Made by a program: the position numbers and the translations under genes
Assembly: GCF_041886205.1 (NCBI RefSeq)
Contig: NZ_CP169031.1
Direction: 5' to 3' (one strand)
Length of the DNA: 64,000 nt
Source: Escherichia coli
GTDB taxonomy: Bacteria; Pseudomonadota; Gammaproteobacteria; Enterobacterales; Enterobacteriaceae
The notes under the pieces: model-generated
Told to the model about the DNA's origin: nothing
Databases searched by the model: none
The model's input: the letters and a program-made list of their open reading frames with translations, nothing else
Shown here: positions 55,418 to 55,493 of the stretch, piece by piece
Layout of the letters: each line of letters starts with the position of its first letter
Numbering within the stretch: position 1 is the stretch's first letter

Positions 55418-55493
55418 TGGTGGCCCCTACCGGACTTGAACCGGTGACCGTGCGATTATGAGTCGCCAGCTCTAACCACTGAGCTAAAGGGCC
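55418..55493 (-). tRNA. tRNA with CAU anticodon (Met or lysidine-Ile2)
   Basis: Cloverleaf GGCCCTTTAGCTCAGTGGTTAGAGC...CTCATAATCG...GGTTCAAGTCC...CCA read on the minus strand. Confidence 0.8.

Follow-up and report, generated by a model that had tools for sequence, protein, structure and literature searches.

A CAU-anticodon tRNA gene beside ban in a P1-like phage: its probable tRNA-Ile2 identity and the conserved structured RNA that follows it

Which tRNA is encoded by the CAU-anticodon gene that lies next to ban in a P1-like phage: an elongator tRNA-Met, an initiator tRNA-fMet or a minor tRNA-Ile2? A tRNA-Ile2 with the anticodon LAU is a substrate of IleRS rather than of MetRS and reads AUA only. 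We have followed this question in a 64,000-nt stretch of Escherichia coli DNA, called the window throughout, which represents a P1-like phage; the 5 kb around the tRNA are 98-99% identical to P1, P7 and many P1-like phage-plasmids. A first-pass annotation had placed a CAU tRNA beside ban, and both ARAGORN and Rfam return exactly this gene, on the same strand as ban and with the ban start codon 286 nt downstream of its 3' end. The strand, which was absent from that annotation, is minus for both genes. The tRNA gene and the operon around it comprise the following features.

55418-55493, minus: very probable tRNA-Ile2 gene (trnI of P1), 76 nt, anticodon CAU; called by ARAGORN and Rfam RF00005
55458-55460, minus: anticodon CAT (tRNA positions 34-36), as positioned by ARAGORN; loop identical to that of ileX/ileY
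55489-55490, minus: C4 and C5, the 5' halves of the acceptor pairs C4:G69 and C5:G68, from the pair table
55425-55426, minus: G68 and G69, which complete these two pairs on the 3' side, from the pair table
53767-55131, minus: ban, DnaB-like replicative helicase; Pfam DnaB_C (E = 1e-107) and P1 annotation
55497-56202, minus: tciA (TerB domain), tciB and tciC, directly upstream of trnI in the same operon; P1 annotation mapped by alignment
57130-57205, minus: tRNA-Thr(UGU), same operon; ARAGORN, Rfam and P1 annotation
57208-57283, minus: tRNA-Asn(GUU), same operon; ARAGORN, Rfam and P1 annotation
57939-57966, no strand assigned: bivalent C1 repressor operator over the Pban promoters; matches to the C1 consensus with 0 and 2 mismatches

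The gene scores 64.7 bits against the Rfam tRNA model RF00005 (gathering score 29, E = 1e-12), and this score together with the ARAGORN call supports a canonical cloverleaf, in which the non-standard pair 27:43 is the sole irregularity flagged by the Rfam model. The 3' CCA is part of the gene sequence. In total, ARAGORN calls three tRNAs in the window (CAU, Thr-UGU and Asn-GUU). The stop codon of tciC ends 3 nt upstream of trnI, the TerB match of Pfam falls on the ORF at 55768-56202 (tciA), and the ban ORF also carries the DnaB N-terminal domain (Pfam E = 3e-35). Obanab and the promoters P1ban and P2ban are annotated in P1 at the place homologous to 57939-57966, and the order of the operon is Pban, tRNA-Asn, tRNA-Thr, a repeat-rich leader, tciA/B/C, trnI and ban.

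The window tRNA is identical at 76/76 positions to trnI of P1 (NC_005856, locus P1_gt117) and to the tRNA-Ile of P7, and in both phages it sits between tciC and ban in the ban operon, as it does here. NC_005856 labels it "tRNA-ile2 (CAT)", 89 pct identical to ileX. It should be mentioned that the gene, its Ile2 assignment and its likeness to ileX are already known, having stood for years in the P1 reference annotation. Among complete E. coli genomes, 455 records have a copy at least 99% identical to trnI; the RefSeq label on the identical copies listed, which are plasmid-sized records of P1-like plasmids, is tRNA-Ile. The best chromosomal matches in complete E. coli genomes reach 89.5% and are tRNA-Ile genes of the ileX/ileY type.

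The sequence of trnI was compared position by position with ileX, ileY, metT/metU and metV of E. coli K-12, which served as reference tRNAs. Its identity is 89.5% to ileX/ileY, 85.5% to ileZ of the Shiga-toxin phage 933W, 71.4% to metT and 58.4% to metV. When a CAU tRNA is judged by its nearest type among the Ile2, tRNA-Met and tRNA-fMet of the host clade (PMC1635315), trnI falls with Ile2 and not with tRNA-Met or tRNA-fMet. The acceptor pairs C4:G69 and C5:G68 are found in ileX, ileY and 933W ileZ as well, whereas metT has U4:A69 and A5:U68. E. coli TilS contacts these two pairs directly, and they are its dominant identity elements (PMC12514573, PMC11947777, PMC1635315); trnI has both of them, and it has C34 in the genomic anticodon CAT. 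The anticodon stem 28-31:39-42 (GC, CG, GC, AU) is that of ileX and has only one of its four pairs in common with metT, and the anticodon loop CUCAUAA is common to ileX, ileY and metT. In all, trnI shares with ileX/ileY the acceptor pairs 1-5, the D arm, the anticodon loop, the pairs 28-31:39-42 and A73. Apart from the anticodon, the IleRS identity set consists of A37, A38, A73, U12:A23 and C29:G41, all of which are present in trnI. The acceptor and anticodon stems, which the first-pass annotation had named as the deciders among the three kinds of tRNA, thus both point to Ile2, and the TilS determinants that it had suggested looking for are in place. Supported by these determinants, by the anticodon stem and by the identity to ileX, the gene is, as far as a sequence can tell, very probably trnI of a P1-like phage, a minor tRNA-Ile2 homologous to ileX and ileY.

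Eight positions distinguish trnI from ileX, namely position 6 (where trnI is as ileY), 26, 43, 44 and the pairs 49:65 and 51:63. In the T stem the two differences are each compensatory (49:65 from G:C to A:U, 51:63 from U:A to C:G), which argues for a tRNA kept under structural selection. The pair 27:43 is a G.A mismatch in trnI where ileX has G.U. Across the Ile2-type tRNAs it is G.U in ileX/ileY, G.A in P1, D6 and a Yersinia phage, and A.C in 933W ileZ, and among the tRNAs compared it is C:G only in tRNA-Met. Because 27:43 is non-Watson-Crick in all Ile2-type tRNAs compared, we read G27.A43 as typical of the family and not as damage. However, E. coli TilS has been reported to be impaired by anticodon-stem substitutions (PMC11947777), and given this sensitivity and G27.A43, the efficiency of lysidine modification of trnI is uncertain.

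An elongator tRNA-Met that reads AUG would have the same CAU anticodon and the same loop, and the trnI sequence is indeed labelled tRNA-Met by ARAGORN and in several GenBank phage records, among them the P1 isolate OP279344 and vB_EcoM-Ro157c2YLVW. Moreover, the unmodified share of any Ile2 tRNA acts as a tRNA-Met (PMC1635315). These labels, however, derive from reading the anticodon literally, without isotype models, and trnI has none of the E. coli tRNA-Met pairs U4:A69, A5:U68 and C27:G43 of metT/metU, the kind of clear elongator elements by which the first-pass annotation would have abandoned the Ile2 assignment. With an anticodon stem unlike that of metT and an identity of 71% as against 89.5% to ileX, a tRNA-Met is very unlikely. 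The label derived from the anticodon would accordingly be wrong for trnI and the tRNA-Ile2 label of the P1 reference right, which matters for analyses of codon usage and tRNA complement in P1-like phage-plasmids.

The G27.A43 mismatch could also be taken as the mark of a decaying, non-functional copy of host ileX carried by the phage, and the identity of trnI among P1-like phages is uninformative on this point because the flanking DNA is also 98-99% identical. Such decay is highly improbable, since the rest of the cloverleaf is complete with both T-stem changes compensated, all identity elements that were checked and the encoded CCA are kept, and the distant relatives in D6 (97.4%) and in a Yersinia phage (94.7%) retain the same features, including G.A at 27:43. 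The chance of an initiator tRNA-fMet, which has the CAU anticodon alone in its favor, is practically nil: where initiators have the C1xA72 mismatch, A11:U24 and three G:C pairs at 29-31:39-41 (PMC1635315), trnI has G1:C72, C11:G24 and C29:G41/G30:C40/A31:U39, that is, no initiator feature and no run of three consecutive G:C pairs, and with 58% identity to metV this reading is refuted by the sequence.

A phage-borne parallel to the tRNA-Ile2 described here is ileZ of 933W, which lies in the ileZ-argN-argO cluster upstream of stx2. It is likewise an Ile2-type CAU tRNA with C4:G69, C5:G68 and a non-Watson-Crick 27:43. In contrast to trnI, to which it is only 85.5% identical, ileZ belongs to a late operon behind pR' and has its own putative promoter, whereas trnI belongs to a repressor-controlled early operon.

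What could a tRNA-Ile2 offer the phage? The first-pass annotation had suggested help in decoding AUA codons in AT-rich cargo. We counted codons in the 54 long, non-overlapping, ATG-started ORFs of the window, a crude set rather than curated genes, and in this set AUA accounts for 171 of 17,140 codons (10.0 per 1000, or 16.5% of Ile codons). This is about a two-fold enrichment over the published value of 4.9 per 1000 codons for E. coli (PMC12514573), in which AUA is a rare codon. ACA, the codon that matches the Thr-UGU tRNA, stands at 11.9 per 1000. Among the ten ORFs richest in AUA, four encode tail or baseplate proteins; they lie at 47.7-52.4 kb and reach up to 38 AUA per 1000 codons. The enrichment fits the idea of codon supply, although the effect is modest; the rationale of AUA decoding thus gains moderate support, while 'AT-rich cargo' is an overstatement, as the window has 48.2% G+C.

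From the sequence we infer that trnI would be expressed, carry lysidine at C34, be charged with isoleucine and perhaps benefit the phage, along the following lines. Relief of C1 repression would give a polycistronic transcript of the ban operon that includes trnI; because trnI lies within the C1-repressed ban operon, its transcription is expected once repression is lifted. Read-through from Pban to trnI is an assumption here, since the transcript would first have to pass a terminator-like hairpin located ahead of the tRNAs. Host RNases would cut trnI out of the polycistronic RNA, and host TilS, going by the identity elements and the published rules for the enzyme, would recognise C4:G69 and C5:G68 and convert C34 to lysidine. 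The resulting LAU anticodon would have trnI charged by IleRS rather than MetRS, and the tRNA could then add AUA decoding capacity for phage genes, including those of the baseplate and tail.

The terminator-like hairpin with its run of eight T (57757-57776, minus) is situated between the C1-controlled Pban and the first tRNA. It falls in a region annotated in P1 as 'dicF-like region' (within about 57741-57842), for which the Rfam model of DicF gives no match at E <= 5. It is noted that the length of the T run differs among the window, the P1 reference and OP279344.

The spacer between the tRNA gene and ban holds a second conserved element, immediately on the 3' side of the tRNA.

55229-55402 (flanks about 55200-55417), minus: conserved structured RNA of ~175 nt, directly 3' of trnI; supported by homology and covariation

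The trailer of ~190 nt after the tRNA is 88% identical in phage D6, in which tciC has diverged and ban is absent. Since the flanking genes on both sides differ in D6, the tRNA and the trailer appear to move together. The trailer is also ~79% identical over ~180 nt in many lambdoid and Uetakevirus phages (Stx2c phages, cdtI, mEp460, phiV10 and phiv142-3), and it is conserved in part in Klebsiella, Enterobacter and Stenotrophomonas phages. Among 5426 complete E. coli genomes, 1825 (about one third) contain the structured RNA. It carries the invariant GGUAGCCGGAAUGUGCAAG. Its exact core 18-mer, GTAGCCGGAATGTGCAAG, is present in more than 120 IMG/VR contigs, and in a collection with one genome per species this 18-mer is found in 27 DNA stretches, almost all from Enterobacterales, with the genera Citrobacter, Kosakonia, Klebsiella, Escherichia, Phytobacter, Pseudescherichia, Buttiauxella and Erwinia represented. 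In 40 E. coli records sampled across the ranking, no feature is annotated under the structured RNA, and phage records have a 'hypothetical protein' call over it at most. Rfam 15 returned no family for it, either with the window sequence at E <= 5 or with five divergent homologs at E <= 1, and a literature search with its invariant 14-mer brought up only unrelated C. elegans papers. Judged by its absence from Rfam and from the full-text literature searched, it is a candidate for an undescribed RNA.

The fold was modeled through an exhaustive search for covarying column pairs, and the model was then tested on an alignment of 42 distinct homologs (A6). The resulting model has six helices and two candidate pseudoknots. 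Within A6, 94.1% of the cells form a standard pair, as compared to 28-45% when the 3' partners are slid by 1-3 columns, a control that is somewhat flattering because the structure was derived from these same sequences. The count of double-sided changes is still large, with 17 of the 37 pairs changed on both sides, and none of 500 shuffles reached the observed covariation score. Pairs with clear changes are listed below by A6 column.

H1, columns 7:19: A:U 25, G:C 16
H2, columns 46:103: C:G 29, U:A 12
H5, columns 151:163: C:G 32, G:C 8
H5, columns 153:161: A:U 23, U:G 12, C:G 7
Candidate pseudoknot from the H5 loop to a downstream GGUG, columns 156:176: C:G 38, A:U 3
H6, columns 183-186 with 196-199: four covarying pairs

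The second loop-to-strand pairing, GCACA/UGUGC, is invariant and hence beyond covariation testing. RNAalifold independently recovers H2, H5 and H6, and it favours a long-range GCACAU/AUGUGC pairing over the hairpin H1; this preference, coming from a folding model, hints at alternative conformers. On the first, wider alignment RNAalifold gave a poor structure. The minimum free energy fold of the whole 286-nt spacer between the tRNA and ban is no better than that of shuffled sequences (z = 0.06), so that single-sequence folding would miss the structured RNA, which was found by covariation.

The surroundings of the structured RNA give some hint as to its possible role. In mEp460 it lies ~40 nt past an operator/promoter-like region that comes after the repressor gene and a terminator, which we take to be the place where a lambdoid pL would be. 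Promoter-like -35/-10 hexamers, picked out by eye, are found directly upstream of it in several other loci. We sorted 114 distinct copies by their tRNA neighbours: a tRNA-Arg(UCU) follows within 250 nt on the same strand in 22, a CAU tRNA directly precedes nine (the P1-likes) and follows one, and the other 82 stand without an adjacent tRNA. In many cases the structured RNA seems to open an early or 'moron' transcript or adjoins a rare-codon tRNA (Arg-UCU, Ile2). We put forward tentatively, as a possibility somewhat short of even odds, that the tRNA-Ile2 gene and an undescribed class of phage RNA, likely a cis-acting leader, form the 5' and 3' halves of one module. A leader role in the elongation or processing of early or moron transcripts is a guess made from position only. 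The RNA might render RNA polymerase resistant to terminators by analogy with put and nut elements, or it might direct the processing of the polycistronic ban-operon RNA.

These observations also bear on what the tRNA is for. It could be a genuine Ile2-type tRNA whose main value is something other than codon supply, a view that is compatible with the tRNA-Ile2 assignment itself. The tRNA could sustain AUA decoding if infection depletes or cleaves host tRNA, or it could form a joint transcript-processing or regulatory module with the adjacent structured RNA. In D6 the tRNA and the ~190 nt trailer are kept together at 88-97% despite differing flanking genes, the lambdoid homology of the structured RNA starts 2 nt past the position of the tRNA 3' end, and 32 of the 114 distinct RNA copies adjoin a rare-codon tRNA (Arg-UCU or CAU). 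The modest AUA enrichment could also be counted in favor of such a value. On the other hand, we know of no nuclease that targets tRNA-Ile2, and with 82/114 copies free of an adjacent tRNA, the RNA does not require one. We consider a main value outside codon supply unlikely and prefer to see in trnI a tRNA-Ile2 that supplements AUA decoding.

Two known kinds of RNA, the put antiterminator and HDV-like ribozymes, were considered for the structured RNA. The put and nut elements make RNA polymerase terminator-resistant, and the HK022 put RNA, ~70 nt in length with two stems, acts in cis just downstream of an early promoter. The structured RNA, in contrast, has ~175 nt and six helices. A profile of the element run with nhmmer finds nothing at 24-32 kb of HK022, where putL lies. 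Only a 9-mer and AGCG are shared with putL; of 300 shuffles, 13-16 aligned to it equally well or better in the best cases, and at least 140 did so for three of the six homologs tested. By its sequence, then, the structured RNA is not a put element. A literature search for put-like elements returned nothing relevant. Minimal HDV-like ribozymes are much shorter and have a different double-pseudoknot topology. Theta and other HDV-like ribozymes, of the minimal HDV-like type, have been described flanking phage tRNAs (PMC10879173). The Rfam scans returned no HDV family, and with size and topology differing as well, this identity was set aside. An apparent conserved protein family downstream of the element, with the peptide 'SVVVNAQADA', turned out to be the translation of a conserved RNA hairpin.

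For the tRNA itself there is little at stake, and the adjacent RNA would matter more if confirmed. It would then be an RNA that is abundant, conserved and yet unannotated, carried by phage P1 and by about one third of complete E. coli genomes. It lies ahead of the ban helicase gene and beside a leader full of boxA/boxB-like hairpins, in a phage with well-developed genetics.

The ban leader contains four to five long hairpin units (about 56340-57570, minus) around and after tRNA-Asn and tRNA-Thr.

56591-56624, 57020-57053, 56898-56914, 57113-57129 and 57552-57568, repeats given on the plus strand: examples of the hairpin-unit repeats

Each unit has the 5' arm ACAACAGGTAAGGGC, which a variable insert separates from a boxA-like 3' arm, GCTCTTACCGTTGTG, past which come ATGAAT and then a small hairpin, either GCGCAGGCTGATGCGC or the compensatory variant GCACA...TGTGC. 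The boxA-like 3' arm reads GCUCUUACC, then GUUGUGAUGAAU. The small hairpin after it has a conserved loop and a compensatory stem (GCGCA/UGCGC vs GCACA/UGUGC), and by its sequence the arm with this hairpin looks like a nut site. Similar hairpin units follow the structured RNA in mEp460 and many other phages. Over the hairpin units, the P1 annotation places the ORFs upl and plp on the other strand, and these two calls may be doubtful.

The hairpin units may also be slots of tRNA gain and loss. One hairpin unit of P1 holds a T-arm-like GGGTTCGAATCCC. In Ro157c2YLVW a tRNA-Tyr(GUA) is added between Asn and Thr, and among the hairpin units of both D6 and an 81-kb IMG/VR contig there is an additional tRNA-Ser(UGA). 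The Ile2-type tRNA is kept in Ro157c2YLVW, in D6 and in the 81-kb contig; the tRNA complement of P1-like phages otherwise varies.

Compared to the P1 reference, the window has a different allele of tciA (55768-56202, minus), which is strongly diverged and identical in type to that of OP279344, and an extra repeat unit of ~196 bp farther upstream, after tRNA-Thr (about 56860-57055, minus). The extra unit is shared with OP279344 and is not in the P1 reference, and its sequence also follows the structured RNA in mEp460. Just upstream of tciA there is a sub-threshold Rfam match to the gammaproteobacterial sRNA STnc100 (56240-56355, minus), which reaches 42 bits where the gathering score is 47 (E = 4.5e-7).

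A 14-codon ORF, MPIISDIQHAWVEC, is found at 55131-55175 (minus), with a stop codon that overlaps the ban start (TAATG). Its fourth codon is AUA, which the tRNA a short way upstream would decode. It is identical in P1 and Ro157c2YLVW and is unannotated in P1. Translational coupling of this ORF to ban or an AUA-dependent control is conceivable. Downstream of ban (52494-53767, minus) the window departs from the P1 reference, in which ban abuts dbn. The DNA here comprises a 100-aa ORF (53465-53767), without a Pfam match, between ban and a 324-aa ORF (52494-53468); the latter has a near-threshold match to Glycos_transf_1 (glycosyltransferase group 1), at 25.1 bits against a cut-off of 26.4.
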